DNA from: Escherichia phage B9-1
DNA length: 64,000 nt
Sequence record: OQ420740.1
Direction: 5' to 3' (one strand)
The notes beneath the pieces are model-generated. The model searched no databases. It was given only the letters and a program-made list of their open reading frames with translations, and was not told the origin of the DNA. Below, piece after piece: positions 1 through 47,412 of this stretch. The translations under genes were made by a program, and so were the position numbers. Every line of letters begins with the position of its first letter. The first letter of the stretch is position 1.

Positions 1-3000
1 AACGGAACGTCGTTGACTGTCCACGAACACCCAGACCCTTGGCCTGATCCTGGAAAACCTCACCCAGGTGCTCGTACACTGAAAATTGTCAGCCATGATG
101 CAGGATATTTCGGAATACGCTGGGAAGCCACAGTAAGATATGCAGACGGGACAACAAACAACATAGGGATTACACTTGGAGGCACCAGTGAAGATAGCTC
201 TCTGAAAATTGCCTACACCCCTAGGGGCATCTCTATTGATAATATGGATGTTGTTCGCAATGGTTACGGCGATGTGAATGTCAAAGTTACTCTTGGCGAA
301 CATCTTGGTGGGGAAAGGATCATCATGTATGCCTTTGATCATGACCCGCGAACCAATGGAACTTATGCAAATCAGGCATGGAGTTACCTGATAAATGCAC
401 CTGAGCCGAATACTAAAGAGTTCTACTACGGTATGAAGCGAGATGTATGCAAGAAAACAGGAACACATGACTGGATTGCTATCTGCGTTAAAGATGAGCG
501 CACAGCTTGGGATGAGCCTGTTAATAGATGGTTCATAGGTATTCCTACCAGAAGCGATAAGTATATCGCAGAATACATTGTGTGCATGGGCGGTACCAAC
601 CTAAATATGTGTTGGAACGAAGATGCAAACAAATACTCTGATTATGACTATATGAGAGATTACTCTTGTAATCAGTGGTTTAACCAATCAACAGGGTATC
701 CTCCACGACAGGCGAGAGTAAACCCTGCAATCTTTACAGATACGCAGGTTTTCTTGACAAAACAGGCCAACGAGGTTCAGACCTTCAAGAACAAATACGA
801 CCCTAACAAGTGGTTTTATAACTGTTATGGCGCATTTTTCTGGGGTCCTGGCGAACTGCCTAATGGAGGATCTTGCTTCGAGGCTGCAACTTACGCCAGT
901 GACAGGTTCATGGGGCAGGTTAAGAAGTACAAGATAATCCCAGGGCCTGAAACTTTAGGCAACGCTGTTGACCCATATATCATCATGACAGCACTAAGAT
1001 CGAACATGGACGGAACATCCATATCTATGCAAGTTCCAGTAACAAACGGGTACAAACGTGTTGTGATGATCATTAAGTGCGACTTAATAGGTAAGCAAGT
1101 TCTTGCAGAAAACGGAACCTCAACACATCTATTCGAGACTGCTCTGCATTATCAGTTTGCTGATTCACCTTTTGCAGGGGATAAGAGAATATCTGATACA
1201 GACAACACTCGATGCAAGAAATTTATGCTTGGTGGTGGATGGTGGTGGTATGAATTTGATTTAACAGACAAATTCACTGACACGTCTAAAGTGGTGACAG
1301 GGCTTCGTCTAGATCTTGGCGAAAACATGCACAAAAGTGTTTGTGATGGCACCTACGGTGACCCAACAATCTACTTAAAGTATGTCTCTTTTGAGCATCC
1401 GGAAGATGTTGTTTACGGTCCAAAACTGAGATTGTTTGGCAGTTGGATTGCAAAAGACAGGGTAGGCATGGGTAAAAAGGTAAGAGGGTTCTTGGTTGAT
1501 GCAGGAACAGAAGACATGCTGGTTAATGCAGTGTGGCCTGAATTACCTGGGACTCAGTGGGATAACTCAGCCAAGTCCATAAACTGGTTCAACATTCACA
1601 GAGCTATGTGGACAACTAACTGCTACCTGTGGAAAGAGTTGAATGACGGCGCTTTCGGGTTTACAGGTGGCAGAAGAATGGCAATCATTTGCTGGACAAC
1701 GCTGCAAAGATGTTATGACCATGACTACGAGATTGGGGGTAGGGCATGGAAAAATATTAGGGATAGAATCATAACTAACTTCGCAGACCCTAATGGTGGT
1801 GGAGCGTATGGCTTCGACTGCAGCAGGCTCATCCATTTGAACGGGTCCTCTGCATATAAGAAAGAGGGTTACTCTGGATCTATGATTGAGTGGGGCCTGG
1901 TGAAAGATGCTCGCGTATTGATGGGTCAACAACTTGCTGCTGCAATAGGACCTAACGCAGTGCAGTCTGTTAAACCAGCGTGGTTCGATATCCCAATATG
2001 GTCATCTGGAACACCAGGAACTGCGGCAATCAACCCTACCACTGGGGATCTGGAAATCTCTTGGGAGGACTTGAAGCAGGTTGGTGGCTGGGATAAGACA
2101 GGCTACCAGGTACAATGGTGGAGATCTGACGGATCGTTAGCGGCTGATGAGTTTGTTAAGGACAATTTCTACACTATGTCCTCTGCAAAAGCACAGCAAT
2201 TGTTTGGTCAGGCAACTCCGTCAACGATCACCATGTCCATGTGCTGTAAAGACAACAGGACTGGAGCCCTGGGACCAAGGGTTGCTAAAGTTTTCTCAGG
2301 TATTAAATGGAATCTCCCTGTTCAAAGTGTTTCATGGAAGCAAATAGGTGATAACAAGCTGCTGGTTACTCCTGCCTGTCAGTTCAACGCAACTCTTAAC
2401 GTTGATCCTGCTGTTGCGGCAAACTCAGCTAAAGCTTCTGACTTCTCTGTGTCTAACACTGCTATGGCAGATGTGAGGAAGATTGATACACTGAATGCCA
2501 GAATTACCTGTAAAAACACTTATGGCACATTCCAGATCATCAACAACTTCACAGATGCTGATTCTAAGGTAGTGAGGACAGCAAGCCAGACTATGCAGTT
2601 GGGAACTCTGGCATACTCTGCCTTGATCACTGAACAATCTCCTACCCTTCAGGGTGGGGGTGTTGGTAAGTTGATCACAACACCTGTGTGGAAGCCAAAT
2701 GAGTGGGTTGTGTTTGATTTGACTGTAGACTTCTCCAGTGACAATAACTGGACATGGGTAAGGAATTGCTTGTCACAGTTGATGGGTGGTCCAAGCTCTG
2801 TTAGTGATAGCCACGACTCTACTGACCCGAGCGTGTTCCAGGTGGGTAAAACTCACCCAGAAACTGGGGCACAGTTGCCTGACAGGAAGTATGCTTTGGT
2901 TTGCATCTCTTACGGAAAAGCAGATGTCACCTTCTCAGGGACGCACACTTATAACGGAACTTACAACTTCTCAAGGAAGTATAGTCTCAAGGCTGGTAAC

Positions 3001-35294: not shown

Positions 35295-35298
35295 AAGG

Positions 35299-35549: not shown

Positions 35550-35559
35550 GTATTATACT

Positions 35560-35892: not shown

Positions 35893-35912
35893 TAAAACGC
35901 AGGAGATAAAGT

Positions 35913-36985: not shown

Positions 36986-37151
36986 AGTACTCGATCTGTT
37001 TTTCGTTTCAAAGATTGAATTTTCTGAAAATTTTTCTCGATAAATTTCTTAGTACTCGATCTGTTTTTCGTTTTCTGAATCAGATTTTCTGGAAATCGTT
37101 CCGGAGCTCGACCTGAAATTTTTGGGGACGAAATCGATTTTTCGTTTTCGG
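36986..37151. repeat. AT-rich iteron-like direct repeats in non-coding DNA
   Basis: AGTACTCGATCTGTTTTTCGTTT at 36986-37008 and 37051-37073; related CTCGACCTGAAATTTTTGG 37107-37125 and CGAAATCGATTTTTCGTTTTCGG 37129-37151. Confidence 0.7.
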
Positions 37152-37282
37152 AAATGGATTTTTAAAATTTGTATATGGAAATACTTAAGGAGGTATTATT
37201 TTATATAGAATTGTCACGGTAGGTAATTAGCATGCTAACTAAATTTATGAAATGCGAAAAGTTCTCATTTAGAATTTTGAAT

Positions 37283-37490
37283 GATAATCATTCTCGTTTG
37301 CAGAATAACGGGCACCCCCGGTGATTGTCTCCCGGCCCCTGTTGCCCCGGCTTGTTATTATAGTATCACACAGGACAAAGAAAGCAAGGATTTTTTGCAT
37401 AAATTTTTAAATGATAATGATAACCGTTCTCATTTTATGCAGCGCCCATCCCCGGTGGTTGTCTCCCCCGTCACCGGTGCCTGCCGTCCT
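37283..37490. repeat. Two direct copies of a GC-rich ~50-bp element (third, inverted copy at 46052-46100)
   Basis: AATGATAA...CCCGGTGATTGTCTCCC at ~37283-37340 and AATGATAATGATAA...CCCCGGTGGTTGTCTCCCCCGTCACCGGTGCC at ~37420-37490. Confidence 0.65.
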
Positions 37491-37652
37491 TTCGATAGGT
37501 ATATTGTGCCACCTGGCGGGGCCGCTGTCAACACTTTTCAAAAAAATTCTAACCTGATGCGCTAACCGTTGCAACCTGGCGGGGCCAGCCTGGCAGGGCT
37601 ATGCTATAGGGTAGGCAACAACTGAAGAGGAGGTACAAAAATAAAAGGTAAT

Positions 37653-37820
37653 ATGATCCCTGGAAATGTAGCGATTAATGACGCTGAGGCTATCGCCCTG
37701 GTTGAAAAGGCTATGGCGGGAGCGTTGGAACATAAAGAAGAGTACGAAAAAATGATGGTTAACCTGGCAGGGCGGCGGCTGGAGAATTCTGCCCAAAAAA
37801 TAATTCTAACTAATGGTTGA
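37653..37820 (+). CDS. Small hypothetical protein (55 aa)
   Basis: ORF below track cutoff, MIPGNVAINDAEAIALVEKAMAGALEHKEEYEKMMVNLAGRRLENSAQKIILTNG; RBS GAGGAGG/AAAAGG upstream. Confidence 0.35.
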   Translation: MIPGNVAINDAEAIALVEKAMAGALEHKEEYEKMMVNLAGRRLENSAQKIILTNG

Positions 37821-37896
37821 CAGCTCGGATAGTTCTGTTATTCTTATCCTCGCAAGGTGAACAACACCACACTAATTAACAGAGAGGATAAAAATC

Positions 37897-38094
37897 ATGA
37901 ACGCCTACGGAATTAAAGTACGTCGCAACACTCGCCAGGCCGTCACCGATCAAATGATTTGCCAGGTGGACGTAACCATCAACAACGGGCAAGGCCTTTA
38001 TAAATTCCGTCGCGGTCAGAGCTACACCCGGCAACAGCTTAATCGTTGCGCCCTGACAAAAGGCCAGATCAACCACTGGTTTAATAAAAAATAA
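37897..38094 (+). CDS. Small basic protein (65 aa)
   Basis: Track ORF; RBS AGAGAGGA. Confidence 0.5.
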   Translation: MNAYGIKVRRNTRQAVTDQMICQVDVTINNGQGLYKFRRGQSYTRQQLNRCALTKGQINHWFNKK

Positions 38095-38097
38095 GTA

Positions 38098-38126
38098 TTG
38101 ACATACAGTCTGACACCAAATACACT
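38098..38126 (+). promoter_or_regulatory. sigma70-type promoter
   Basis: -35 TTGACA 38098-38103, 17-bp spacer, -10 TACACT 38121-38126. Confidence 0.5.
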
Positions 38127-38158
38127 AAAAGCACAAAAGACACTAAGAGGATAAAATC

Positions 38159-38557
38159 ATGAAAACCACTACCTTTAATTTTGATAATGCGGACTTTTCT
38201 TTTTCTGATGTCAAGAACTGCCGCCGTGATCGTGGATTTTACAAGGCTTATAATCTGGTGGGCCTGGACGATGACAATAATTTGCACGAAGTAGCTGAGA
38301 TCCGGTATTATGCCGCCGCCAGCGGGAACACTCAATACTGTGTTTTTTGGATTCACGACAACAAGAACAATAAGTACGGTTATACTGGCGGGAAGGCGAG
38401 CGGTCACGGTTACGATAAAGCTAATGCAGCACTTGAGAGCGCATTAAATGCTATGGGGATCACTGCCAACGGCTGGATCTATGAAGAAGAGTTTTTGTCG
38501 GCACTTGCTAACCACCTGGGCTATAAAAAGCACATTGTAACATGCGCCCACGAATAA
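38159..38557 (+). CDS. Hypothetical protein (132 aa)
   Basis: Track ORF; RBS AAGAGGA. Confidence 0.6.
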   Translation: MKTTTFNFDNADFSFSDVKNCRRDRGFYKAYNLVGLDDDNNLHEVAEIRYYAAASGNTQYCVFWIHDNKNNKYGYTGGKASGHGYDKANAALESALNAMGITANGWIYEEEFLSALANHLGYKKHIVTCAHE

Positions 38558-38563
38558 AAATTG

Positions 38564-38620
38564 TTGACACGCTGCAAAATTCAAGTAAACTAATCACAAA
38601 AGGCGGGAATGTTTCCCGCC
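38564..38620 (+). promoter_or_regulatory. sigma70-type promoter plus 5' leader hairpin
   Basis: -35 TTGACA 38564-38569; weak -10 TAAACT ~38586; hairpin GGCGGGAA-tg-TTTCCCGCC 38602-38620 then AACACAAAGGA and ATG 38640. Confidence 0.5.
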
Positions 38621-38639
38621 AACACAAAGGAAAAAGATC

Positions 38640-39044
38640 ATGAATAAGAACGTACGCCGCATCATGAATGAACTGGCAAACGATGAAAAAATTATTGACA
38701 TGCATTTGATCAACATTTGCCGCCGTTGTGTAACATATAACAACCGCGCCGCAAAAGCGCGTGAGATGAACGCAAAAGGCACCTTAAAGCCCTTCCAGGT
38801 GGTGGTAAAGGCCATTAAAGATGTAACTAATACGGCAAATCAGGTACAGGGGAACACCAACGAAAGTACCAATATTGATCCGGCTTACATCATGAAACGG
38901 ATCCGGACCTGCAAGAACAAAGAGCAGGTGTATAACGTCATAGACTGGTTGGATTCCATGGGCGACGTGGTGTACAATAGGTTTTCTGCAGCTATCGAGA
39001 TCCAGCTTGACAGGTTGGACGGTAAAGTACTGAAAACTTACTAA
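38640..39044 (+). CDS. Hypothetical protein (134 aa)
   Basis: Track ORF. Confidence 0.6.
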   Translation: MNKNVRRIMNELANDEKIIDMHLINICRRCVTYNNRAAKAREMNAKGTLKPFQVVVKAIKDVTNTANQVQGNTNESTNIDPAYIMKRIRTCKNKEQVYNVIDWLDSMGDVVYNRFSAAIEIQLDRLDGKVLKTY

Positions 39045-39093
39045 GTTTATTTTTAGATGGCCTTGACTACAGGGCCATCAATAAAGTAAACTA
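39043..39093 (+). repeat. Conserved ~45-bp intergenic element, copy 1
   Basis: TAAGTTTATTTTTAGATGGCCTTGACTACAGGGCCATCAATAAAGTAAACT, starting on the stop codon; internal hairpin GATGGCC...GGCCATC. Confidence 0.7.
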
Positions 39094-39123
39094 ATCTCAG
39101 TTAAGCGAAAAAGGGGCTTTAAG

Positions 39124-39243
39124 ATGAGCACTACACGCCAATACACAAAGGTAACTATTATCGCCTGCGTTGTCGGTTACATCCTGGCGCAAATGTTAAT
39201 GAGTAGCGCTAACAGTTTTGCAAAATTTTTCTTAAATTTTTAA
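39124..39243 (+). CDS. Small hydrophobic peptide (39 aa)
   Basis: ORF below track cutoff, MSTTRQYTKVTIIACVVGYILAQMLMSSANSFAKFFLNF; weak RBS. Confidence 0.25.
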   Translation: MSTTRQYTKVTIIACVVGYILAQMLMSSANSFAKFFLNF

Positions 39244-39271
39244 TTGACAAGCTAACCCAAATCAGTATACT
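39244..39271 (+). promoter_or_regulatory. sigma70-type promoter
   Basis: -35 TTGACA 39244-39249, 16-bp spacer, -10 TATACT 39266-39271; then leader hairpin GGGAAAACTTCCC 39285-39297. Confidence 0.6.
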
Positions 39272-39322
39272 TAAACACGTAAACGGGAAAACTTCCCAGA
39301 ACACACAAAAGGAGAAAACACC

Positions 39323-39664
39323 ATGACTACTATGACCGCCGCAGAAAAAGCTATTCAGGTTGCCGCACTGAAAAAACAGATCGCAGACCTTGAGAACAAG
39401 ATCGATAACTTTGAAATCGACGAGGACAAGTACGACGAAAACTATGATGAATGGTTAGACGAGGTCTACGGCGAAATCATGATCGGAAACATTTCTTTTC
39501 TTCCGTCGCGTATCCTCAAGGAGCTAGATCCTATCGCTTACCGCTGCGGATTTAGCGACTACATCGACAGCCTGGATATTGAGGACGATGAAGAGTACCA
39601 AGAATTGCAAACAGAGTTGGAAGAAGCAAAAGAAGAGCTTGCAGAACTGGAAGAAAACGAGTAA
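39323..39664 (+). CDS. Highly acidic coiled-coil-like protein (113 aa)
   Basis: Track ORF; RBS AAGGAGA; D/E-rich, e.g. DEDKYDENYDEWLDE and DIEDDEEYQELQTELEEAKEELAELEENE. Confidence 0.6.
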   Translation: MTTMTAAEKAIQVAALKKQIADLENKIDNFEIDEDKYDENYDEWLDEVYGEIMIGNISFLPSRILKELDPIAYRCGFSDYIDSLDIEDDEEYQELQTELEEAKEELAELEENE

Positions 39665-39713
39665 GTTTATTTTTAGATGGCCTTGACTCCAGGGCCATCA
39701 ATAAAGTAAACTT
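39663..39713 (+). repeat. Conserved ~45-bp intergenic element, copy 2
   Basis: TAAGTTTATTTTTAGATGGCCTTGACTCCAGGGCCATCAATAAAGTAAACT, starting on the stop codon. Confidence 0.7.
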
Positions 39714-39750
39714 TACACTGTTAACACTGAACTAATGAGGAGTTAAAACC

Positions 39751-39996
39751 ATGGCAGCACTAATCACCAAATACTATGCCCCTACCAACACCAAAAGCGC
39801 CCGGATCATGGTAAAAGGCTTCGGACGTAAAAAGGTTTACACCTGGGATTATTCCCTAGACATGGAAGACAACTACACCAACGCGATGACCGATTTTATT
39901 AACGAGCTGAATACGCGGATCTTAACAAATTATAAAATTACCGACATTGCTTATATAGGTGAAGGCGGGATCTGTTTTGTAGGCATTGTGAAATAG
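39751..39996 (+). CDS. Hypothetical protein (81 aa)
   Basis: Track ORF; RBS GAGGAG. Confidence 0.55.
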   Translation: MAALITKYYAPTNTKSARIMVKGFGRKKVYTWDYSLDMEDNYTNAMTDFINELNTRILTNYKITDIAYIGEGGICFVGIVK

Positions 39997-40047
39997 TTAT
40001 TTTTTCGGTGGTCCTGGTTGCAGGGCCATCTATAAAAATAATTTACT
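39997..40047 (+). repeat. Diverged copy of the ~45-bp intergenic element
   Basis: TTATTTTTTCGGTGGTCCTGGTTGCAGGGCCATCTATAAAAATAATTTAC, directly after a stop codon. Confidence 0.5.
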
Positions 40048-40071
40048 AACACCATGAAAGGAGAAAGTAAC

Positions 40072-40425
40072 ATGATCAGCGGTGCAAGTTTTATTATTGG
40101 CGCTATTGCTACGGCTTTAATTGTAAACAAGATCCAATCCAAAAACGAAAAAGAGAGCAACGCCCTTGCAGAATATCCATTTTGGACATTTAACGATAAC
40201 GAAGATTATATTATAAAGTATAAAAATAAAGAAGGTGACCAAGTAACACCGCGACCGATCCCGGCTTACAAGATGCAGGAAACACTATACCGCCTGGAGG
40301 CGGGGGGCGCAAAAATTGTGGACTTTTGGGGATACGATCACACAGATCAGGAAGTTATAAAGCGCCGTATCCGGGCTATTCAGGCCAATATTGAAGTTAG
40401 CAAGGGGGGAATATATGAAGATTAA
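40072..40425 (+). CDS. Putative membrane-anchored protein (~117 aa)
   Basis: Track ORF 40054..40425; ATG 40072 after RBS AGGAGA; N-terminal helix ISGASFIIGAIATALIV. Confidence 0.55.
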   Translation: MISGASFIIGAIATALIVNKIQSKNEKESNALAEYPFWTFNDNEDYIIKYKNKEGDQVTPRPIPAYKMQETLYRLEAGGAKIVDFWGYDHTDQEVIKRRIRAIQANIEVSKGGIYED

Positions 40426-40612
40426 TTTTGAGAAGATTGTAAAGCGATCTCATGATTCCGAAGAGCTGCCGGAACGCCGCCAGCGTAACAATAAACTGAA
40501 TAAGCCAAAAAGATTTGGAAAGATCTGGCGAAATCATTATGATCGTAAATTGCCTGGCCTACTTTTGGAACGTGAACGACAGGCAGAACGATACCGCCAT
40601 AAAGACAAATAA
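40415..40612 (+). CDS. Small basic protein (~65 aa)
   Basis: Track ORF 40391..40612; ATG 40415 after GGGGGGA preferred. Confidence 0.45.
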   Translation: MKINFEKIVKRSHDSEELPERRQRNNKLNKPKRFGKIWRNHYDRKLPGLLLERERQAERYRHKDK

Positions 40613-40620
40613 CAACCAAC

Positions 40621-40647
40621 GCCCCGCCATTGTGCGGGGCTTTTTAT
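40621..40647 (+). terminator. Intrinsic terminator
   Basis: GCCCCGC-cattgt-GCGGGGC then TTTTTATTT. Confidence 0.75.
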
Positions 40648-40793
40648 TTCTATCCTACGAATAGCGCCCCTGGTTGGCCCTATAAGCGCCAAAAAGGCCC
40701 CCACCTATGCAATCCCCTTTCTTAACCTGAAAACATCGCCCAGGGCCGTTTTATGGCGTTAAAAATATTATTGACAGTGATTTTATTTAAAGC

Positions 40794-40821
40794 TTGACAT
40801 CTTAAACAGGTTAGCTATACT
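40794..40821 (+). promoter_or_regulatory. sigma70-type promoter
   Basis: -35 TTGACA 40794-40799, 16-bp spacer, -10 TATACT 40816-40821. Confidence 0.6.
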
Positions 40822-40853
40822 AACCACATCAAAGAGAGAAAGGAGTAAACGCC

Positions 40854-41114
40854 ATGCGTAAATTAAAAAATTTTGATAAGGTTGATGTTGTCCTGAATAA
40901 TTTTTACTACTGCAACAACAAGGCCATTTGGTGGCGTGATAGTTCCACCGATAAAGTCAAGGCGCGCTTTCTCCAGGGGCACTGGCAAGGCCGCCCAGTG
41001 ATTAAAATCATGGGGCAATTGGTAGCGTTTAAAAATTGCCGCCGTGTTGATGACGTTGAAGAGATCTTGAACATTTTACGCCACAATAATTTAAAAAATA
41101 GTGTTGACAAGTAA
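40854..41114 (+). CDS. Hypothetical protein (86 aa)
   Basis: Track ORF; RBS AAGGAG. Confidence 0.6.
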   Translation: MRKLKNFDKVDVVLNNFYYCNNKAIWWRDSSTDKVKARFLQGHWQGRPVIKIMGQLVAFKNCRRVDDVEEILNILRHNNLKNSVDK

Positions 41115-41160
41115 ATCTCGATAAGTATAATTAAACACACAGGCGGGAAAACTTCCCGCC
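41104..41160 (+). promoter_or_regulatory. Near-consensus sigma70 promoter plus 5' leader hairpin
   Basis: -35 TTGACA 41104-41109, 16-bp spacer, -10 TATAAT 41126-41131; hairpin GGCGGGAA-aac-TTCCCGCC 41142-41160; RBS AGGAGA; ATG 41189. Confidence 0.7.
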
Positions 41161-41188
41161 ACTAACAAAGAAAACAGGAGAAAATATC

Positions 41189-41812
41189 ATGACCACCGTT
41201 AACATTACCACAGGTTACAATTTATCTTTCGACGTGCTGACCGACGAACAAAAAGAAAAAGCCGTTGAAATGGTCCGCGAAAGAGAAGAACACAGCGGGG
41301 ATAACTTTTTTGCAGAAAGTGTAATTGAATACTATAAAGAATATGTTTTTCCAGAGTATGGCCTTGAAGATACCGAAGTACATTGGTCCGGCTTTTGGTG
41401 CCAGGGTGACGGCGCGTCAATCAGTGCTGAAAACGTTGATTTAGAAAAATTCTTGCGTAAAGTCAAATCTCTGACTAAATTCCGCTCAATTCGTAACTTG
41501 TTCGGCACAATGCACGATGGCGAGCTATCTGCAAGTGTTGAGCGTGATCCATATAGCCGCCATAGTCACGAAAACACTGTAAGCGGGTACATTGATACTA
41601 CATGGCTAGACCTGACAGCCAAGCAAGAAAGTAAGGTTGAAGAGCTGGAAGAGCTGATCACCGAGACGGTACGGGAGCTATCCCGCAAGGTTTATGTAGA
41701 CCTGGAGGAGGCCTATCTTGAACAGTTTACTACCGAAAACCTGATCGGCCTTATTGAAGCCAATGATTGGCGGTTTAATGTGGATGAATATGGGGAGATG
41801 AGTTTTTCATAA
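41189..41812 (+). CDS. Hypothetical acidic protein (207 aa)
   Basis: Track ORF; largest gene in the island; no motif recognised. Confidence 0.65.
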   Translation: MTTVNITTGYNLSFDVLTDEQKEKAVEMVREREEHSGDNFFAESVIEYYKEYVFPEYGLEDTEVHWSGFWCQGDGASISAENVDLEKFLRKVKSLTKFRSIRNLFGTMHDGELSASVERDPYSRHSHENTVSGYIDTTWLDLTAKQESKVEELEELITETVRELSRKVYVDLEEAYLEQFTTENLIGLIEANDWRFNVDEYGEMSFS

Positions 41813-41820
41813 ATAAAGTG

Positions 41821-41877
41821 TTGCAATAATCTAAAAACCTGCTATATTAAAACTCAAGGGGCGAGATGACTTGCCCC
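41821..41877 (+). promoter_or_regulatory. sigma70-type promoter plus 5' leader hairpin
   Basis: -35 TTGCAA 41821-41826, 16-bp spacer, -10 TATATT 41843-41848; hairpin GGGGC-gagatgactt-GCCCC 41858-41877. Confidence 0.6.
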
Positions 41878-41901
41878 ACACAAAACAAAGAGGATAACAT
41901 C

Positions 41902-42282
41902 ATGAAAAACACCACCAAGGCTATTGACACCGTTATGTTTAACCTGGTTACATTCCGTGAAGATATGAAAGATCTTCCACGTGAAACAGTGTGCGACCAT
42001 ATCGAAAACTATCGCAAACTTATTAAAGAATTGCCATTAAAACGAGATCAGTACGCGGCTAACGCTATGCTTAACGCCATGATCAAAAAGATGATCCAGT
42101 GTGATTTAACTCTGGCCTATGATTATGCAGGTGGTCGTTTTGCAGTATACAATCAGCCCGTGCCTGGTATGAGCACCACCGAAGAATTGCACGCGCTCAA
42201 TCTAAAACAAGACGTGTGGGATAATATGCCCCGCGTGGTGGTGTGGGCAGAAAGCGGAAAGATTTACGGCGATAATTTTTAA
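41902..42282 (+). CDS. Hypothetical protein (~127 aa)
   Basis: Track ORF 41866..42282; ATG 41902 after RBS AAGAGGA preferred. Confidence 0.6.
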   Translation: MKNTTKAIDTVMFNLVTFREDMKDLPRETVCDHIENYRKLIKELPLKRDQYAANAMLNAMIKKMIQCDLTLAYDYAGGRFAVYNQPVPGMSTTEELHALNLKQDVWDNMPRVVVWAESGKIYGDNF

Positions 42283-42348
42283 TCAGGTAACAGGCGGCGG
42301 CATATTTGCCGCCCTATTGTTAAGAAGAATTGTAAGAGGGTACATAGA

Positions 42349-42720
42349 ATGGAATTTATTATTTTGGCTATATTAGTTGCCTTGTTTAACGCCTGGATCG
42401 CTGGCAAGATGGGCAGATCTGCCTTTTTATGGTTTATTATATCTATCTTCCTGGGAGTGGTTGCAACTATTGTATTGGTTATCCTTGCAATTGTTGATAA
42501 GGGGAATAATAGAAAGGGTAAAGTATTTTCAGACCTGTACGACGCTCAAACATTTGTCAACGCCTACTACAGCGATCTTCCAGTCTCCCTACGTTGCAGC
42601 CTTGCACAACAGGTTTTCGATGAAGCTAAAACCAGAGATCACGCCCATGAGATATGTTTAACTGAGGCGGATCGCCTATTTGAGAGGAATAGAAAATATG
42701 TGGACCAACCGTTTAAATAA
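42349..42720 (+). CDS. Putative membrane protein (123 aa)
   Basis: Track ORF; two hydrophobic helices near N-terminus. Confidence 0.6.
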   Translation: MEFIILAILVALFNAWIAGKMGRSAFLWFIISIFLGVVATIVLVILAIVDKGNNRKGKVFSDLYDAQTFVNAYYSDLPVSLRCSLAQQVFDEAKTRDHAHEICLTEADRLFERNRKYVDQPFK

Positions 42721-42770
42721 TGCCACGTTAATTAATCCCTTTAGTGAAGATTTGAAGCCAGCCGCCTGGC

Positions 42771-42956
42771 GTGATGGATTCAATAACGAAAGCTTTATTT
42801 TCAGGCCTGATCTTAAGGAATTTTATAACAATGGATCGAACAACGACAGAGATAATTTTTCTCGTAATGTGCGTGGCGATAATACTCCTGGGGGCCATTG
42901 CAAACCACGTCACTGCTAACAGGAGGGAAGGGGGAGACGATGACACCCAAGGATAA
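42771..42956 (+). CDS. Possible small membrane protein (61 aa); frame choice ambiguous
   Basis: Track ORF with hydrophobic segment IIFLVMCVAIILLGAIA; competing ORF 42680..42919 in another frame. Confidence 0.3.
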   Translation: MMDSITKALFSGLILRNFITMDRTTTEIIFLVMCVAIILLGAIANHVTANRREGGDDDTQG

Positions 42957-43059
42957 GCCCCGCACCGATAAGGCGCGCCGTGTTATGGTATGGCTTGAGA
43001 TCATCGCCCTTGAAATATTGTTAGGCGTAGGGATGTATTTTATCGCTGTAAGTAACTGA
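42940..43059 (+). CDS. Small membrane peptide (39 aa)
   Basis: ORF below track cutoff, MTPKDKPRTDKARRVMVWLEIIALEILLGVGMYFIAVSN; strong RBS AGGAGGGAAGGGGGAG; followed by terminator. Confidence 0.4.
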   Translation: MTPKDKPRTDKARRVMVWLEIIALEILLGVGMYFIAVSN

Positions 43060-43063
43060 TAAC

Positions 43064-43096
43064 GGCCCCCGATCCCTGGGGGCCTAACTTTTTAAA
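43064..43096 (+). terminator. Intrinsic terminator
   Basis: GGCCCCC-gatccct-GGGGGCC then TAACTTTTTAAATTTTTT. Confidence 0.75.
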
Positions 43097-43113
43097 TTTT
43101 TTCTCCCTGGGTG

Positions 43114-43165
43114 TTGCAATCCGATCCAGAATATGGATAATAACAATCAACGGGGAGCAATCCCC
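43114..43165 (+). promoter_or_regulatory. sigma70-type promoter plus 5' leader hairpin
   Basis: -35 TTGCAA 43114-43119, 16-bp spacer, -10 GATAAT 43136-43141; hairpin GGGGAGCAATCCCC 43152-43165 then ACCAACACAAAG. Confidence 0.6.
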
Positions 43166-43196
43166 ACCAACACAAAGACTAAAAAGGAGAAACAAA

Positions 43197-43397
43197 ATGA
43201 GCAACAATATCCGCGTTATTAACTTCAAAAAAGAAGAAAAAATTGCCGTGCTGATTGACGGTCAAGAAATCTTTAAAGGCGATTATGAAGATCATCAGGT
43301 AGCGATCAGTATTACCCGCGTGATTGGTTACCATAATTTTTACCCCCAAGGCGCTGAGGCAGCAGTAAAACGAATTAAAGAGATTGTAGGCCTGTAA
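43197..43397 (+). CDS. Hypothetical protein (66 aa)
   Basis: Track ORF; RBS AAGGAGA. Confidence 0.6.
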   Translation: MSNNIRVINFKKEEKIAVLIDGQEIFKGDYEDHQVAISITRVIGYHNFYPQGAEAAVKRIKEIVGL

Positions 43398-43399
43398 AA

Positions 43400-43444
43400 T
43401 TTATTTTTAGATGGCCTTGACTCCAGGGCCATCAATAAAGTAAA
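43400..43444 (+). repeat. Conserved ~45-bp intergenic element, copy 3
   Basis: TTTATTTTTAGATGGCCTTGACTCCAGGGCCATCAATAAAGTAAA, immediately after stop codon at 43395-43397. Confidence 0.7.
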
Positions 43445-43481
43445 TTTAAACCCTGTTAAAATAATCAGTGCAAAAGGAGTA

Positions 43482-43787
43482 ATGATCATGTTTATCCAGG
43501 CTAATAATCTTTATTTCTTTGATGGTCAGATCGTAGACGGCGTGGAGGTGGAAATCACCGGGTGCCCTGGCGGTCAGGTTATGACTTTTCGGAATAATGC
43601 CTTTGATGATTCTCATATCGTTATGAGAATGGAAGTTAGTAAGCTGGACGATAAGAAAACACTCATTGATTATTCCGTGAAAGATCATCCAGACTACCAC
43701 ATGATCTATGGCGATTTGTGCATTGTTGACCGTGACAAGGTGGGCGGCATTGTGATCGCTATTGTGAACGATGTTTTCTCTAAATAA
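43482..43787 (+). CDS. Hypothetical protein (101 aa)
   Basis: Track ORF; RBS AAGGAG; ATG 43488 equally possible. Confidence 0.6.
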   Translation: MIMFIQANNLYFFDGQIVDGVEVEITGCPGGQVMTFRNNAFDDSHIVMRMEVSKLDDKKTLIDYSVKDHPDYHMIYGDLCIVDRDKVGGIVIAIVNDVFSK

Positions 43788-43927
43788 TTCCGGCAAATGA
43801 TGCAAAATAAGGCCCCTGGCAGGGCCTGCAGCGATATAATCACATAAAGGCTATGCGGTTGCATGGCCTTTATTATTTTAGCGTTACAGCTGCCCCCAAG
43901 GCGCTTAAAAAATTTTTAAAGAAGTAC

Positions 43928-43955
43928 TTGCATCAAGTCCTACAATATGGATAAT
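43928..43955 (+). promoter_or_regulatory. sigma70-type promoter
   Basis: -35 TTGCAT 43928-43933, 16-bp spacer, -10 GATAAT 43950-43955; same ATATGGATAATAA block as the 43114 promoter. Confidence 0.55.
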
Positions 43956-44016
43956 AAAGGGTGTCGGGGGGCGGTGAGGCCTCCAATCATTAACCAGATA
44001 GATAGGAGTTAAAACC

Positions 44017-44301
44017 ATGGCTATTGTTACCGTTGGCGATGTAGTAGAAATGGAAGCCAAATACTTAAAAGCGGGTATGCATATCATACGGAATGATCAA
44101 GAATTGTTATTAACCATGGTTGAATATAATCCCGGTCAGGATTATCCTAGCGTTGACTACTTTTTCCAGTATGTTGATGAAGAATTAAAAGAGGATGAGG
44201 CTTATCAGGGTGAATTTTGCAATTTCTTTTGCTCTGACGAGGTTGTAAAAGTTATTTATCAACCTGGTGTACCTTTCCCGTTGCACGCCATCAATAAATA
44301 A
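44017..44301 (+). CDS. Hypothetical protein (94 aa)
   Basis: Track ORF; RBS TAGGAG. Confidence 0.6.
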   Translation: MAIVTVGDVVEMEAKYLKAGMHIIRNDQELLLTMVEYNPGQDYPSVDYFFQYVDEELKEDEAYQGEFCNFFCSDEVVKVIYQPGVPFPLHAINK

Positions 44302-44367
44302 GCCTGGCGGGGCCGAAAAGGCCCCTCCTGAAATTATGAAAAAAAAAATAAAGAGGGGTGAATCATC

Positions 44368-44604
44368 ATGATTGAACAAATTAAAAGCACTAAACCGAAC
44401 GTTAACGGCAATGTTTCTCACTTTATTGGTGATAATGAAAGAGGGACACCGTACGCTGCGGTAACAGTTCAACCGAACGGGGATTATTGGTTTACTGTAT
44501 ATGGATCTTATTCTTTTGGGCGTCCGGTGCATGATAGAATTTTAAAAGTAGCTAATCCGACCGGGAAGAATATCACAGCAGAAAAATTTTTTGAAAATAG
44601 TTGA
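44368..44604 (+). CDS. Hypothetical protein (78 aa)
   Basis: Track ORF; RBS AGAGGGG. Confidence 0.55.
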   Translation: MIEQIKSTKPNVNGNVSHFIGDNERGTPYAAVTVQPNGDYWFTVYGSYSFGRPVHDRILKVANPTGKNITAEKFFENS

Positions 44605-44651
44605 CATGACCGTATAAGACTGTAGTATATAAATCAAAGGGGGCAAGCCCC
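44601..44651 (+). promoter_or_regulatory. sigma70-type promoter (-35 overlaps upstream stop codon) plus leader hairpin
   Basis: -35 TTGACA 44601-44606, 16-bp spacer, -10 TAGTAT 44623-44628; hairpin GGGGGCAAGCCCC 44639-44651 then ACCAACCACAAAGAGGA. Confidence 0.55.
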
Positions 44652-44676
44652 ACCAACCACAAAGAGGATAAAAATC

Positions 44677-44856
44677 ATGGCTATTATTGCAAAGACCGAG
44701 ATTGTAGGGTTAGATTCTATTCTCCTGGCATATGAGGAGGCTATAGAAATGTATGTGGTTTCCTATGGTGAGTATATCCGTGAATATAAATCTATTGATC
44801 TAGCTTTTGAATGTTATATTCGCCAGGTCAATAAAGCATATGATGATTATCGTTAA
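44677..44856 (+). CDS. Small hypothetical protein (59 aa)
   Basis: ORF just below track cutoff, MAIIAKTEIVGLDSILLAYEEAIEMYVVSYGEYIREYKSIDLAFECYIRQVNKAYDDYR; preceded by promoter, hairpin and RBS AAGAGGA. Confidence 0.45.
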   Translation: MAIIAKTEIVGLDSILLAYEEAIEMYVVSYGEYIREYKSIDLAFECYIRQVNKAYDDYR

Positions 44857-44948
44857 AATAGTTTGACAACAAACAACACCGTCTAACAAAGCATAATACA
44901 TAAGGTGGTGGAATGGTCCGCCACCTGGAGCAAGAAGAGGAAAACAAG

Positions 44949-45053
44949 ATGAAACAGAAATTAATTGATGCGATGATCCTGGTTATTGCCCTGGGTATTG
45001 GCCTGATTGCAACCATGGCTAATATGATCTTGTCTTCCAACGGTATCGGATAA
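44949..45053 (+). CDS. Small membrane peptide (34 aa)
   Basis: ORF MKQKLIDAMILVIALGIGLIATMANMILSSNGIG; RBS AGAAGAGGA; preceded by hairpin GGTGGTGGAATGGTCCGCCACC. Confidence 0.3.
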   Translation: MKQKLIDAMILVIALGIGLIATMANMILSSNGIG

Positions 45054-45062
45054 GGTGGGCAA

Positions 45063-45278
45063 ATGATCACCAACAAAACAGGCAAAACAGAATTTTTACG
45101 CAACTTGCAGATCGGCAAGCCTGAGATCTGGTATTGCACTAAAACACCACGTGACGAAATGAAAGATTTTACCGCCACGCTGAAGCGGGTAAAGATATCT
45201 ATCACGCAGAAAAAAGCCTTGATAGTGGTTGAAGGTGAGATCCCTCAAGCCGTTGTTATAGTTGAGCGTACAGCATAG
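45063..45278 (+). CDS. Hypothetical protein (71 aa)
   Basis: Track ORF; RBS AAGGTGGG. Confidence 0.5.
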   Translation: MITNKTGKTEFLRNLQIGKPEIWYCTKTPRDEMKDFTATLKRVKISITQKKALIVVEGEIPQAVVIVERTA

Positions 45279-45369
45279 TTTAATTTATACAGATACCCGA
45301 AAATTAACCAACAAAGCATAAACAGGCGGTTACTGCCGCCTTAAACGTAGCAGAAAGAGGATAGACACA

Positions 45370-45654
45370 ATGAAAAAGATGATCGCAGTGGTTGCCCTGG
45401 TTGTTGGACTTAATGCGCCTGTAATGGCTAAAGAGTTGGCAAAAGAGGTAGATCTAACTGATATCCATGCCGTCAATCAAATCGGGGTTACTTATCGCCT
45501 ATGCCTTGCCGCAAAAACTTTTAAGGACGGCACTACAGAGTACTACGGATTCGAGGGCGTCCGGTGCGGTGAACTTGCTCGCGACCTTAAAGAAGATCCA
45601 GACCTGGAGGATCTGCCGATAACCGTAAACGGGAAAACTTACGTGAACCGTTAA
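45370..45654 (+). CDS. Small secreted protein with signal peptide (94 aa)
   Basis: Track ORF; N-terminus MKKMIAVVALVVGLNAPVMAKE; RBS AGAGGA; upstream hairpin GGCGGTTACTGCCGCC. Confidence 0.6.
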   Translation: MKKMIAVVALVVGLNAPVMAKELAKEVDLTDIHAVNQIGVTYRLCLAAKTFKDGTTEYYGFEGVRCGELARDLKEDPDLEDLPITVNGKTYVNR

Positions 45655-45656
45655 CC

Positions 45657-45791
45657 ATGAGAAAGATAATTATTACCATAGGGATCGTGGCGGCAATGTT
45701 GGCGATCTTTCCCCTTATGGTTAGGTATGTGCTGATCAGTGTTGTCCTGGTAGTCAGCGATCTAATGTTATATATTAACTCATTGTTTTAG
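45657..45791 (+). CDS. Small membrane peptide (44 aa)
   Basis: ORF MRKIIITIGIVAAMLAIFPLMVRYVLISVVLVVSDLMLYINSLF, directly after previous stop. Confidence 0.3.
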   Translation: MRKIIITIGIVAAMLAIFPLMVRYVLISVVLVVSDLMLYINSLF

Positions 45792-45799
45792 GTGGAATA

Positions 45800-45991
45800 A
45801 TGACAGCAGAAGAAGTTAAAAAAGTACTGGCAGTACTGCGCTACCATAATCACAGAAAGGTAATAGATGATCCTGATTATGTAGATTCAAGCCTAGAAGA
45901 GGATACACTACAAGCTATCAGCCATATGCAAGAATTGTTTAAGCGTATGACAGAGAAGAACAGATCCGACTACATAGGCGAAAAAATATAA
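45800..45991 (+). CDS. Hypothetical protein (63 aa)
   Basis: Track ORF; RBS AGGTGG. Confidence 0.5.
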   Translation: MTAEEVKKVLAVLRYHNHRKVIDDPDYVDSSLEEDTLQAISHMQELFKRMTEKNRSDYIGEKI

Positions 45992-46051
45992 TCCTTAAAT
46001 ACTATAAAGCAGGGCTTGCAACGGTCCTGTTTTTTGTTACACTTGTTTCAC

Positions 46052-46100
46052 GGGTGGCACCTGGCGACGGGGGGAGACAATCACCGGGCCTGCCTGTCAT
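46052..46100 (-). repeat. Inverted copy of the GC-rich element found at 37283-37490
   Basis: Reverse complement ATGACAGGCAGGCCCGGTGATTGTCTCCCCCCGTCGCCAGGTGCC aligns closely with 37436-37490. Confidence 0.6.
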
Positions 46101-46119
46101 ATAAAAACTATAAAAACCG

Positions 46120-46173
46120 TTGACACCTGCCAGGCGGTGGGGTAACATTTATCTTGAAGGGGCAAAAGTGCCC
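46120..46173 (+). promoter_or_regulatory. sigma70-type promoter plus leader hairpin
   Basis: -35 TTGACA 46120-46125, 17-bp spacer, -10 TAACAT 46143-46148; hairpin GGGGCAAAAGTGCCC 46159-46173 then ACACAACAACC. Confidence 0.5.
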
Positions 46174-46202
46174 ACACAACAACCAGAAGAGAGGAAAACG
46201 CC

Positions 46203-46475
46203 ATGTTAGGCTGGATTAACCAAGAAGTCGAATCACGTTTTAACGCTATTTGGGATCTCATCGAAAAAGAGGACGGAACATCAAGCCCTTATCTCAATAA
46301 TCTTGAATTCCATTTCGTGGAAGCGATGAACGCAGAACATGATCACGAAGGTGGTGCGGACGAGTTCGCTAAAGGGTATGGCTTCAACAATGCCAACGAA
46401 ATGATCGAGGCGGTTGTACTCCAGGCTGAGGAAGATTATCAATTAAAAACGCTTGAATTCTGCCGCCGTAAGTAA
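46203..46475 (+). CDS. Hypothetical protein (90 aa)
   Basis: Track ORF; RBS AGAGAGGA. Confidence 0.6.
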   Translation: MLGWINQEVESRFNAIWDLIEKEDGTSSPYLNNLEFHFVEAMNAEHDHEGGADEFAKGYGFNNANEMIEAVVLQAEEDYQLKTLEFCRRK

Positions 46476-46537
46476 TAAGATAATGACACGGGCCAAAAGG
46501 CCCACTAAACCAGGACCACATAAAGAGGAAAAACATC

Positions 46538-46801
46538 ATGAAACGTCTGGATCAGCTCAAACTAGTTCAGTACATGGCTTACAAAATTCTTGAAGTCCAA
46601 AAAGGTAGCAAAAAAGAAGTTTGCGAGAAAGCTTACAAGATCTTTACTCGCAAAAAAGACGATTGGATGTTACGCCAGACTAAAAAGGCTGATATCTTGG
46701 GGTGCCTGGAAGAAGAGATCCGGCTTGAAGAACAAGAAGAGATCCGCCGTAGTGAGGCAGATTATCAGGCAGCTTGGGAAAACTGGATGAGCAACAAATA
46801 A
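46538..46801 (+). CDS. Hypothetical basic protein (87 aa)
   Basis: Track ORF; RBS AAGAGGA; preceded by hairpin GGGCCAAAAGGCCC 46490-46503. Confidence 0.6.
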   Translation: MKRLDQLKLVQYMAYKILEVQKGSKKEVCEKAYKIFTRKKDDWMLRQTKKADILGCLEEEIRLEEQEEIRRSEADYQAAWENWMSNK

Positions 46802-46867
46802 TACAACAAGCTACATGGTCAGGGGCAATAAAGCCCCTTGATCACATAAAAATTATGCTATCCTTGG

Positions 46868-46896
46868 TTGACAGGGATCGGCAGTTTTGCTATATT
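46868..46896 (+). promoter_or_regulatory. sigma70-type promoter
   Basis: -35 TTGACA 46868-46873, 17-bp spacer, -10 TATATT 46891-46896. Confidence 0.6.
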
Positions 46897-46945
46897 CTTT
46901 TTTGAAGGGAAGTTGTAAGAAAATTAACTAAGAGGTAAAAACACC

Positions 46946-47365
46946 ATGAACATTAAATCTGATAATCCGGCATATAGCTTTGATAACGCTTTTTGTCACG
47001 GTCCGGCGGCGAAAGGATTCGAAATCGATGGTAAACTAGTTATTGTTAATGTTGACGGGGAAGAGGTTGCAGTATATCCGGTGGCAGACGTTAAAAGCCG
47101 TCTACAATGCCGCATGGATGTTACCGCCTACCAGCTTGATCCGGTCCGGGTAGTTGCCCTAGTCCTGGAAGAAGAAATTAAAGCAATGCACCACAGCAAC
47201 AAGTTTATTGGTGACGCTCAAGATAATATGCAGGTATGCCGCCATAAAGTTAATGAAGTACTTAAAGAGTACGGCTATAAGGATTTAATGATCAAGCGTG
47301 ATGAAAAATTCCGTTACCGTAACGACCTGGCAAATCGGATTTTTGAAATATACGAATCATTATAA
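46946..47365 (+). CDS. Hypothetical protein (139 aa)
   Basis: Track ORF; RBS AAGAGG; last gene of rightward island. Confidence 0.65.
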   Translation: MNIKSDNPAYSFDNAFCHGPAAKGFEIDGKLVIVNVDGEEVAVYPVADVKSRLQCRMDVTAYQLDPVRVVALVLEEEIKAMHHSNKFIGDAQDNMQVCRHKVNEVLKEYGYKDLMIKRDEKFRYRNDLANRIFEIYESL

Positions 47366-47384
47366 TTTCTTAACTGAATTATCA

Positions 47385-47410
47385 AGGGGCTTAAAGGCCC
47401 CTTTCTTTTT
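47385..47410 (+). terminator. Intrinsic terminator
   Basis: AGGGG-cttaaagg-CCCCT then TTCTTTTT. Confidence 0.7.
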
Positions 47411-47412
47411 GT

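Follow-up and report, generated by a model that had tools for sequence, protein, structure and literature searches.

The 64,000-nt stretch of Escherichia phage B9-1 analysed here (OQ420740.1; referred to as the window) carries at 37650-47412 an island of very small genes, which a preliminary description made from the sequence alone had presented as about 28 rightward open reading frames (ORFs) packed into 10 kb between two repeat-rich non-coding gaps. All 29 rightward ORFs, here numbered g1 to g29, are present at 37653-47365 on the + strand, 28 of them being judged genes, and both flanking gaps (36675-37652 and 47404-49819) do bear repeats. The best-supported description of the island, to which we assign a probability of roughly 0.7, is a terminal hyperplastic region, that is, an accessory gene region at one end of a Vequintavirus genome, made up of cassettes resembling the 'promoter-early stem-loop' (PeSL) cassettes of T4-type phages.

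More than 200 rV5-like coliphages of the genus Vequintavirus match the island at 92-96% identity, S127 BCL3 best of all at 96%, and the island is the counterpart of rV5 ORF164-ORF197, all of which are hypothetical proteins in the rV5 record. That record already annotates six sigma70 promoters and two terminators within the island block, and the 2013 rV5 paper counts 33 sigma70-type promoters over the genome, treats genes 10-1-238-164 as one transcription unit and labels the right-hand gap 'non-coding' (PMC3606486). The basic observation is correct but largely known, as the public record already has it, and among large lytic phages an island of this kind is nothing unusual. The + strand upstream of it encodes rIIB, helicases, a methyltransferase, a primase/helicase, DNA polymerase and endonuclease VII and then more small genes, and the genes run in a single direction from about 11 kb to 47.4 kb, forming a 36-kb rightward block. 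An Rfam search of the whole window returned zero families and a tRNA scan zero tRNAs. Upstream of the island, 33700-35000 is 98-100% identical to rV5 compared to about 88-98% for 35100-47400 on the island side, a contrast that points to a recent recombination mosaic.

Small genes of the island

The 28 genes encode proteins of 39-207 aa (median 83.5 aa, 19 below 100 aa) at a coding density of 77%, and a good Shine-Dalgarno sequence is found upstream of most of the 29 ORFs. PHROG families were matched by 28/29 ORFs, every family being annotated as 'unknown function'. In a codon-level comparison with nine Vequintavirus relatives, the pooled ratio of nonsynonymous to synonymous substitution rates (dN/dS) was 0.11, with most genes at 0.03-0.2; with ratios this low, the 28 ORFs are real protein-coding genes under purifying selection, and the idea that the island consists of junk ORFs is ruled out, g18 excepted. 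This 33-aa ORF (43853-43954) is probably not a gene, since it has no PHROG match, shows a dN/dS of 0.87 and starts inside a terminator hairpin (43844-43873). The start of g12 (41902-42282, 126 aa) was revised and is probably at 41902 instead of 41866, because the PHROG match begins at residue 13, rV5 ORF184 is 381 nt long and the ATG at 41866 lies within a leader hairpin.

Seven products are small and hydrophobic or signal-bearing. These are g5 (39124-39243, 39 aa, phrog_16391), a hydrophobic and probably membrane-located peptide that is missing in magaca; g8 (40072-40425, 117 aa, phrog_12734), with an N-terminal transmembrane segment by hydropathy; the membrane protein g13 (42349-42720, 123 aa, phrog_13090, maximum hydropathy 3.1); the hydrophobic g15 (42940-43059, 39 aa, phrog_13629), g22 (44913-45053, 46 aa, phrog_14631) and g25 (45657-45791, 44 aa, phrog_16005); and g24 (45370-45654, 94 aa, phrog_9845), which has a signal-peptide-like N-terminus and is missing in SYGMH1 and WM. 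Four products are strongly acidic, namely g6 (39323-39664, 113 aa, isoelectric point (pI) 4.1, missing in magaca), g11 (41189-41812, 207 aa, with the invariant motifs SGFxxQGDGA and YSHENT), g19 (44017-44301, 94 aa, phrog_12610, dN/dS 0.11) and g27 (46203-46475, 90 aa, phrog_7287), and three are strongly basic, namely g2 (37897-38094, 65 aa, pI 10.7, phrog_7119, dN/dS 0.21), g9 (40415-40612, 65 aa, dN/dS 0.03) and g10 (40854-41114, 86 aa, phrog_11241, dN/dS 0.05).

The remaining genes begin with g1 (37653-37820, 55 aa, phrog_21957 at E 2e-27), the equivalent of rV5 ORF197, whose N-terminus differs among relatives, and g3 (38159-38557, 132 aa), whose family has 238 representatives at 50% identity and lacks a Pfam entry. 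They also include g4 (38640-39044, 134 aa, phrog_13245, dN/dS 0.04), g16 (43197-43397, 66 aa, phrog_12347, dN/dS 0.06), g7 (39751-39996, 81 aa, phrog_3199, dN/dS 0.08) and g17 (43482-43787, 101 aa, phrog_7366, dN/dS 0.17). Constraint is weak in g14 (42698-42919, 73 aa, phrog_12060, dN/dS 0.64), which overlaps the end of g13. Towards the right end lie g20 (44368-44604, 78 aa, phrog_9227), common to Phapecoctavirus and jumbo phages; g21 (44677-44856, 59 aa, phrog_9374), whose cassette is missing in SYGMH1; g23 (45063-45278, 71 aa, phrog_5988), the island gene most widely retained across Vequintavirinae genera (CR8, CR9, GAP31, SSE121); g26 (45800-45991, 63 aa, phrog_9599), replaced or deleted in SYGMH1, WM and V18; g28 (46538-46801, 87 aa, phrog_11701); and g29 (46946-47365, 139 aa, phrog_12277), the whole cassette of which (46808-47378) is missing in Gotham, SYGMH1 and WM.

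Searches of all island proteins against Pfam, PADLOC and PDB sequences gave a single informative match, that of g9 to PF08200 (Phage_1_1, the T7 gene 1.1 family; E 2.2e-11, 44.5 bits, cut-off 21). Like T7 gp1.1, g9 is a small basic protein, a likeness that covers 1 of the 28 genes; T7 gene 1.1 is an early gene, and we know of no function for its product. When g3, g6 and g11 were run as profiles against PDB sequences, no match fell below E 0.05, and a fold search with the AlphaFold models of g3 and g11, which are confident at predicted local distance difference test (pLDDT) values of 96 and 87.3, found no meaningful PDB neighbour. The conserved core of g6, YDxxLDExYG...LKELDPIAYRCGFSDY, occurs in many unrelated phages. 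The homology of g27 to RB49 claimed in the rV5 record was not recovered by tblastn at E 1e-3, which returned T1-like phage matches instead, and the label 'DNA translocase (FtsK)' given to g28 in several GenBank records looks like annotation carry-over, since Pfam finds no FtsK domain in this protein.

Promoters, stem-loops and terminators

Promoters were scanned for as TTGACA-16..18-TATAAT with a threshold of at least 10/12, using 300 first-order Markov simulations as the null. The island contains 11 such matches on the + strand compared to 1.86 +/- 1.48 expected and 0 on the - strand, which bears out the preliminary claim of at least ten host-type -35/-10 pairs, and the -10 box is intergenic in nine of the 11 in a sequence with an intergenic share of 23%. 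At a threshold of at least 9/12, 14 intergenic promoters were identified, upstream of g2, g3, g4, g5, g6, g7, g10, g11, g12, g16, g17, g21, g27 and g29. Across the nine relatives, identity is 96.4% in the -35 and 97.2% in the -10 hexamers versus 89.4% in the spacers, and the changes that do occur in the -10 box exchange functional variants (TATACT/TATAAT; TAGTAT/TAATAT/TAGAAT). Stop codons lie in or beside the -35 box at g1, g5, g10 and g20, the overlap with preceding stop codons having been described correctly, and a stop codon is also the first triplet of three repeated cassettes. The aligned promoters have AT-rich regions upstream, and these consensus-like sigma70 promoters fit use by the unmodified host RNA polymerase. 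The 'late' motif of rV5, TGGTAAAATA, was too short to carry information.

The promoter of g11 (41104-41131) is a perfect 12/12 match, TTGACA-16-TATAAT, followed by a stem-loop at 41142-41160 (GGCGGGAA..TTCCCGCC), and the same arms form the stem-loop at 38602-38620 that follows the g4 promoter (38564-38591, TTGACA-16-TAAACT). Comparable pairs of promoter and stem-loop are found at g6 (39244-39271, TTGACA-16-TATACT; loop at ~39285-39297), g12 (41821-41848, TTGCAA-16-TATATT with an extended -10; ~41858-41877), g16 (43114-43141, TTGCAA-16-GATAAT; 43146-43171), g21 (44601-44628, TTGACA-16-TAGTAT, with the g20 stop within the -35; ~44639-44651) and g27 (46120-46148, TTGACA-17-TAACAT; ~46159-46173), which makes seven promoters with a GC-rich stem-loop; in the alignment, such a loop stands a few bases past the -10 in about eight of the 14. 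Those near 41858, 43146, 44639 and 46159 are of the GGGG..CCCC type, and leader hairpins of a similar kind precede g24 and g28. The promoters of g2 (37817-37844, TTGACA-16-TATTCT with an extended -10, the g1 stop within the -35 and hexamers kept in 9/9 relatives), g3 (38098-38126, TTGACA-17-TACACT), g10 (40794-40821, TTGACA-16-TATACT) and g29 (46868-46896, TTGACA-17-TATATT with an extended -10) are followed by no stem-loop or by one of 3 bp only. The other three promoters are near-identical 51-nt cassettes with the palindrome GATGGCC/GGCCATC across the -35: cassette A at g5 (39042-39092, TAAGTTTATTTTTAGATGGCC TTGACT aCAGGGCCATCAATAAAG TAAACT), cassette B at g7 (39662-39712, 50/51 identical to A) and cassette C, the third copy, at g17 (43395-43446).

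The hairpins that follow the promoters are not rightward terminators, because they lack a T-run on the + strand; the scan flagged them as terminator-like on the - strand. Six intrinsic terminators on the + strand, interspersed as the preliminary description had it, split the island into short units. They lie after g9 (40621-40640, GCCCCGC..GCGGGGC then TTTTTATTT), g12 (42293-42313, a terminator-like hairpin), g15 (43064-43084), g17 (43844-43873, 13-bp stem), g26 (46010-46035, CAGGGC..GTCCTG then T6, read from the sequence) and g29 (47384-47403), the last of these closing the island.

Over the whole window, the scan found 35 distinct + strand sites, all but one within 10.7-47 kb, and 22 - strand sites, all but two in leftward-transcribed blocks, with 12 strand-concordant sigma70 matches between 28 and 36 kb. 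The same promoter type thus runs across the 36-kb rightward block, including the replication genes, and across the convergent block, indicating that the island has no transcriptional class of its own. Host-type promoters are present in the island as first described and exceed the simulated expectation, but they are not its hallmark.

Gene turnover at repeated regulatory sequences

Alignment of the 14 promoters revealed a recurring unit, in which AT-rich DNA with the stop codon of the gene before is followed by the -35 and -10 boxes, often a GC stem-loop, a CA-rich leader, a Shine-Dalgarno sequence and the ATG. A tblastn search with the concatenated island proteins covered 80-98% of the query in most Vequintavirus genomes and only 5-20% in Phapecoctavirus, phi92-like, Certrevirus and Seunavirus genomes. 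Lone island genes occur elsewhere, with g11 and g20 in jumbo coliphages, g27 in T1-like phages and the g6 core in a T7-like Providencia phage (at 2964-3092 of its genome).

Comparison with related genomes for gain and loss, which had been proposed as a check, showed that nine Vequintavirus loci differ within 10 kb by at least 12 separate events, whether insertion, deletion or replacement, each of them comprising one or a few whole genes. Five of the seven junctions that were read at the sequence level fall in a -35 box, a stem-loop, a leader or a whole cassette. In magaca, one hybrid cassette replaces the segment from cassette A through g5 and g6 to cassette B. The g21 cassette is bounded on both sides by AAAATAGTTGACA, i.e. 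AAAATAGTT(T)GACA, of which SYGMH1 has a single copy, and a gene specific to S127 is bounded by ATTGACA/TTTGACA, this insertion breaking at a -35 box. At g29 the junction is placed between two stem-loops of the form GGGGC..GCCCC, copies of a CA-rich leader stand on either side of the extra ORF166 found in rV5, Gotham and magaca, and the deletion of g24 fuses two similar start regions. Breakpoints in repeated regulatory parts are the pattern expected if recombination between those repeats moves cassettes, as in the PeSL model.

PeSL cassettes were described in the hyperplastic regions of the T4-type phages RB49 and phi1 (Arbiol et al. 2010, PMC2839356; Comeau et al. 2014, PMC4122927). The order of parts in the island is the same, running from a stop codon in an AT-rich stretch through the sigma70 -35/-10 boxes, a GC stem-loop and a Shine-Dalgarno sequence to the start of a small gene. 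In both cases the stem-loops are of the GGGG..CCCC kind with a variable position relative to the promoter, the small genes have no known homologue, the units form dense arrays in a variable region, and close relatives differ by whole cassettes with breakpoints inside cassettes. The two differ in that the phage carrying the island is a Vequintavirus and not T4-type, that the island adjoins a direct terminal repeat, and that its stem-loops stand mostly after the -10 and without a T-run, which makes a terminator function doubtful. The PeSL-like build of each gene unit in an rV5-like phage is new here.

The right gap and the genome end

The right non-coding gap (47404-49819) separates convergent gene blocks and forms the genome-terminus region. 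A single copy of a 459-bp direct terminal repeat, mapped from Vequintavirus records, lies at 48390-48848. In the Gotham record (MT682716), identical 459-bp repeats are annotated at both ends and map to this segment with 96.3% identity; in the independent record of ECP2309 (PP464953), the 459-bp ends are 100% identical to each other and have the same window coordinates; and version 2 of bov10K2 opens exactly at 48848. Direct terminal repeats have also been reported for Klebsiella phage KPP-1 (514 bp, with two-fold read coverage; PMC9862379) and for the phAPEC8-like phage Schickermooser (328 bp; PMC6563267). If the repeat, taken here from related records and not from reads of B9-1, holds for this phage, the island would adjoin a physical genome end, lying about 1 kb from the repeat, being transcribed towards it and taking up the final ~10 kb at one terminus; the block that converges on it (50-64 kb) would do likewise at the other end.

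The inner boundary of the repeat is abutted at 48270-48389 by tandem GTAAACAG (3 copies, 15-bp period) and by TTGTGTCA/GTGTC repeats, and more copies of GTAAACAG occur at 47858 and 48603. The GTAAACAG and GTGTC-type repeats may be candidate packaging signals. At 49679-49617 on the - strand, the right gap also contains a leftward near-consensus promoter, TTGACA-16-TAAAAT with TG, and, no more than about 25 nt past it, a terminator-like hairpin (ACCGAGTAATTCGGGTTTTCTGTT); the arrangement is conserved in Gotham and could yield a very short RNA or serve as an attenuator.

A probable terminal region of PeSL-like cassettes

Taken together, the promoters, breakpoints and terminal position argue for a hyperplastic gene region at one Vequintavirus genome end, in which 28 small genes are mostly arranged as self-contained cassettes. 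Unmodified host RNA polymerase would transcribe the cassette units early in infection, and the stem-loops may insulate the units from read-through, stabilise transcript 5' ends, or both. Cassettes would move in and out by homologous recombination at the promoters, stem-loops and leaders that recur from unit to unit, as was proposed for PeSLs, and the products would be dispensable, niche-specific host-interaction factors as opposed to core replication or structural proteins. The preliminary description had pictured a block that the unmodified host polymerase transcribes as soon as the DNA enters. Such early transcription, at an entering end, is plausible given the conserved sigma70-type promoters and is strengthened by the terminal position, and what did not stand is a transcriptional class of the island's own.

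Several points weigh against this explanation. Clear GC stem-loops follow the -10 box at only about eight of the 14 promoters, three more having the palindrome across the -35, and the indels of g24 and of a 351-nt gene at 43795 break at short microhomology and not in a promoter. The resemblance to T4-type PeSLs is one of architecture, no sequence homology having been shown. Since structure and breakpoints are what was compared, and the phage is a Vequintavirus lacking such homology, our claim is that the island is built and behaves like PeSL cassettes, not that it belongs to those of T4-type phages. None of the island products received a functional assignment, including the two with confident structure models. 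The literature searched held no transcriptome or 5'-end data for any Vequintavirinae phage, so transcription 'immediately on entry' stays an inference, and the single unit of the rV5 authors leaves room for a contribution of upstream read-through. As to the genome end, the rV5 paper (PMC3606486) and a genome announcement call the genome circularly permuted, and a third paper infers partial permutation.

The left gap and its Fur-box-like palindromes

The conserved non-coding flanks are the less expected part of the region. In the left gap (36675-37652), a repeat occurs three times at intervals of 65-74 bp (36977-37162) and a unit of about 134 bp stands in tandem (37241-37500). The segment 37240-37600 is 96-100% identical in five Vequintavirus species, which is at least the conservation of the flanking genes, and a core at ~37251-37350 on the + strand is conserved at the DNA level in five genera. 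DNA identity over this core is 71-89% in Phapecoctavirus, Certrevirus, Seunavirus and Mydovirus, genera with little nucleotide identity in the rest of their genomes, and the four loci with enough flank place it in a 0.8-1.3 kb gap free of ORFs, amid a same-strand run of small genes.

The invariant part of the core is a palindrome, GAATGATAATCATTC, located in the spacer of a weak promoter-like TTGAAT-18-CAGAAT, and corresponds to the inner 13 nt of the E. coli Fur box with one symmetric base on each side. Palindromes were scored against the E. coli Fur box consensus, GATAATGATAATCATTATC, and its 7-1-7 motif, TGATAATnATTATCA. The site at 37413-37431 agrees with the consensus at 16/19 positions and is the sole match at up to 3 mismatches (0.03 expected), and that at 37277-37295 agrees at 15/19 with an exact 13-nt core, the corresponding box of phage 4MG reading AATGATAATCATTATC. 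The recurrent half-site is TTCTC, not TTATC, which leaves room for another binding protein. Four Fur-box-like 9-1-9 palindromes lie in the left gap within 37251-37434 (at 37251, 37280, 37410 and 37416) and three inside the terminal repeat within 48687-48839 (at 48687, 48705 and 48821), and the generalised palindrome AATGAKAATNATTMTCATT has 8 sites in the window compared to 0.30 expected, four in the left gap, three in the terminal repeat and one that is probably due to chance. The same two-cluster layout is found in KPP-1 (L024), a phage of another genus, where all 7 sites in 40 kb lie in or beside the repeat or at the conserved element 8.3 kb inside, with clusters at 20714-21442 and 29153-29182.

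A structured RNA in the left-gap units or the GC-rich element was rejected on single-sequence z-scores of -1.0 to +0.3, and a ten-sequence consensus fold gave -3.6 kcal/mol with no covariation. In the absence of a conserved RNA structure, the element is probably a DNA-level site, namely an operator, promoter or origin, and the boxes could mediate regulation by Fur, belong to a replication origin or act at the genome end. These shared Fur-like clusters in the left-gap element and the terminal repeat are the most interesting lead, one that lies outside the island proper. By analogy, one may speculate that Vequintavirinae share a terminal module of 8-11 kb of early accessory genes between two such clusters, at which Fur or another reader would gate DNA entry, early transcription, or replication and packaging, a proposal to which we give long odds.

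Other observations in the left gap include the three repeats at 36977-37162, which are TCAGTACTCGATCTGTTTTTCGTTT-like and iteron-like and lie in its less conserved half, and a GC-rich motif, CCCCGGTGRTTGTCTCCC, found at 37316-37333, 37450-37467 and, inverted, at 46072-46089 in the g26-g27 intergenic region (4 matches versus 0.07 expected). A leftward sigma70-type promoter at 37531-37503 on the - strand (TTGACA-17-CACAAT with an extended -10) would direct transcription across the second tandem unit on its G-rich complement, bringing an R-loop-type origin to mind. In SYGMH1, a 757-bp insertion (1844-2602 of its sequence, L006) at window 36652-36754 carries a 192-aa gene with the putative label 'ATP-dependent Clp protease'.

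Alternative explanations

The preliminary description had placed the island in a context where tailed phages keep anti-defence genes, and the context of small, fast-turnover accessory genes on early-type promoters would suit an island in which most of the small proteins inhibit bacterial immune systems. Strong acidity is a property of DNA-mimic anti-restriction proteins, and the very acidic g6 (pI 4.1) has a core that recurs in the T7-like Providencia phage. Against this, searches of Pfam, PADLOC and PDB sequences, and of folds for g3 and g11, returned no match to a known anti-defence or defence family or to a solved structure, and seven products belong to the tiny membrane peptides, a class found more often in superinfection exclusion, lysis control or envelope functions. 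In the BASEL study, Vequintavirinae were 'exceptionally susceptible' to restriction-modification systems and stopped by Fun/Z (PMC8594841), which makes an effective anti-restriction function unlikely. With no positive evidence for an anti-defence role in general, and with published phenotypes contradicting it for restriction-modification, we consider this explanation unlikely.

The comparison with the pre-early region of T5-like phages fares somewhat worse. It would imply that the ~11 kb from the terminal repeat to the conserved non-coding element enter first, that this element then gates either DNA entry or the expression of what lies beyond, and that island proteins shut off the host before the rest arrives. 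T5 pre-early genes use host-type promoters, and in both phages a region of ~10 kb of mostly small genes lies at a genome end and is closed by a conserved, repeat-rich non-coding inner boundary with boxes that look like sites for a host DNA-binding protein. The island abuts the terminal repeat, and the ~11.1-11.6 kb from the genome end to the conserved element amount to about 8% of the 136-137 kb genome, close to the 7.9% of the T5 first-step-transfer segment (10.1101/866236). The non-coding boundary equals or exceeds the genes in conservation, as at the injection stop signal of T5, the boxes found here recur in the terminal repeat, and KPP-1 has the same two-cluster layout. In addition, Vequintaviruses are, like T5-like phages, highly sensitive to daunorubicin, a compound that stops T5-type infection once first-step transfer is over (PMC13250531).

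The boxes here are nevertheless Fur-like, whereas those of T5 are DnaA boxes, and DnaA boxes (TTWTNCACA) are absent from both gaps except for one site at 49225. The terminal repeat is 459 bp, non-coding and with the genes outside it, in contrast to ~10 kb with genes inside in the T5 type, and the island gave no sign of A1, A2 or dmp, all its PHROGs being of unknown function and PF08200 its sole Pfam match above the cut-off, although no direct comparison with A1, A2 or dmp was made. In KPP-1 the distance is 8.3 kb, or ~6% of the genome, so that the agreement with the 8% of T5 may be coincidence. The other genome end, which may be the one to enter first, carries a similar outward-facing block of small genes. 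To our knowledge, two-step DNA transfer has been shown only for T5-type siphoviruses and for no myovirus. As the island departs from the T5 type in every testable defining feature save its terminal position, we regard a T5-style pre-early module as improbable. A host-takeover module of about two dozen very small genes in many short operons with strong host-type early promoters is said to have been described for SPO1 by Stewart et al. in 1998. The island would resemble it in its many very small genes, short units, host-type promoters and position at a genome end, and differ in that the SPO1 module reportedly lies inside a 13-kb terminal redundancy and includes several products with demonstrated host shut-off roles; there is no sequence relationship between the two.

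A single long early/middle operon starting ~26 kb upstream at a divergent promoter region, of which the island would be the promoter-distal tail, with dominant read-through and weak or irrelevant internal promoters, agrees with the single orientation from ~11 kb to 47.4 kb and with the unit proposed for rV5 (PMC3606486) but is very improbable, given that six + strand terminators and a 1-kb ORF-free gap break up the rightward block, that the promoter hexamers are selectively conserved, and that promoters matching the consensus at 12/12 or 11/12 and preceded by AT-rich DNA would hardly be inactive.

Implications

Placing the 459-bp repeat in the 'non-coding box' addresses the conflicting statements on the ends of rV5 and fixes the island at a physical terminus. 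The 28 proteins are a pool of uncharacterised effectors, at least two of which can be modelled confidently and have no relative among solved structures. The palindrome shared by the two flanks, together with the layout in the Klebsiella phage, makes it possible to test in concrete terms whether the genome end is linked to host iron regulation or to another DNA-binding factor; if true, the proposed module would give myoviruses a functional counterpart, coupled to the iron status of the host, of the DnaA-box injection-stop region of T5. Cassette shuffling has so far been described for T4-type phages and appears to operate alike in unrelated and very common therapeutic coliphages, in which cassette-mediated shuffling would be the reason why this region differs between otherwise near-identical phages, and the shuffling region is flagged as a safe engineering site.

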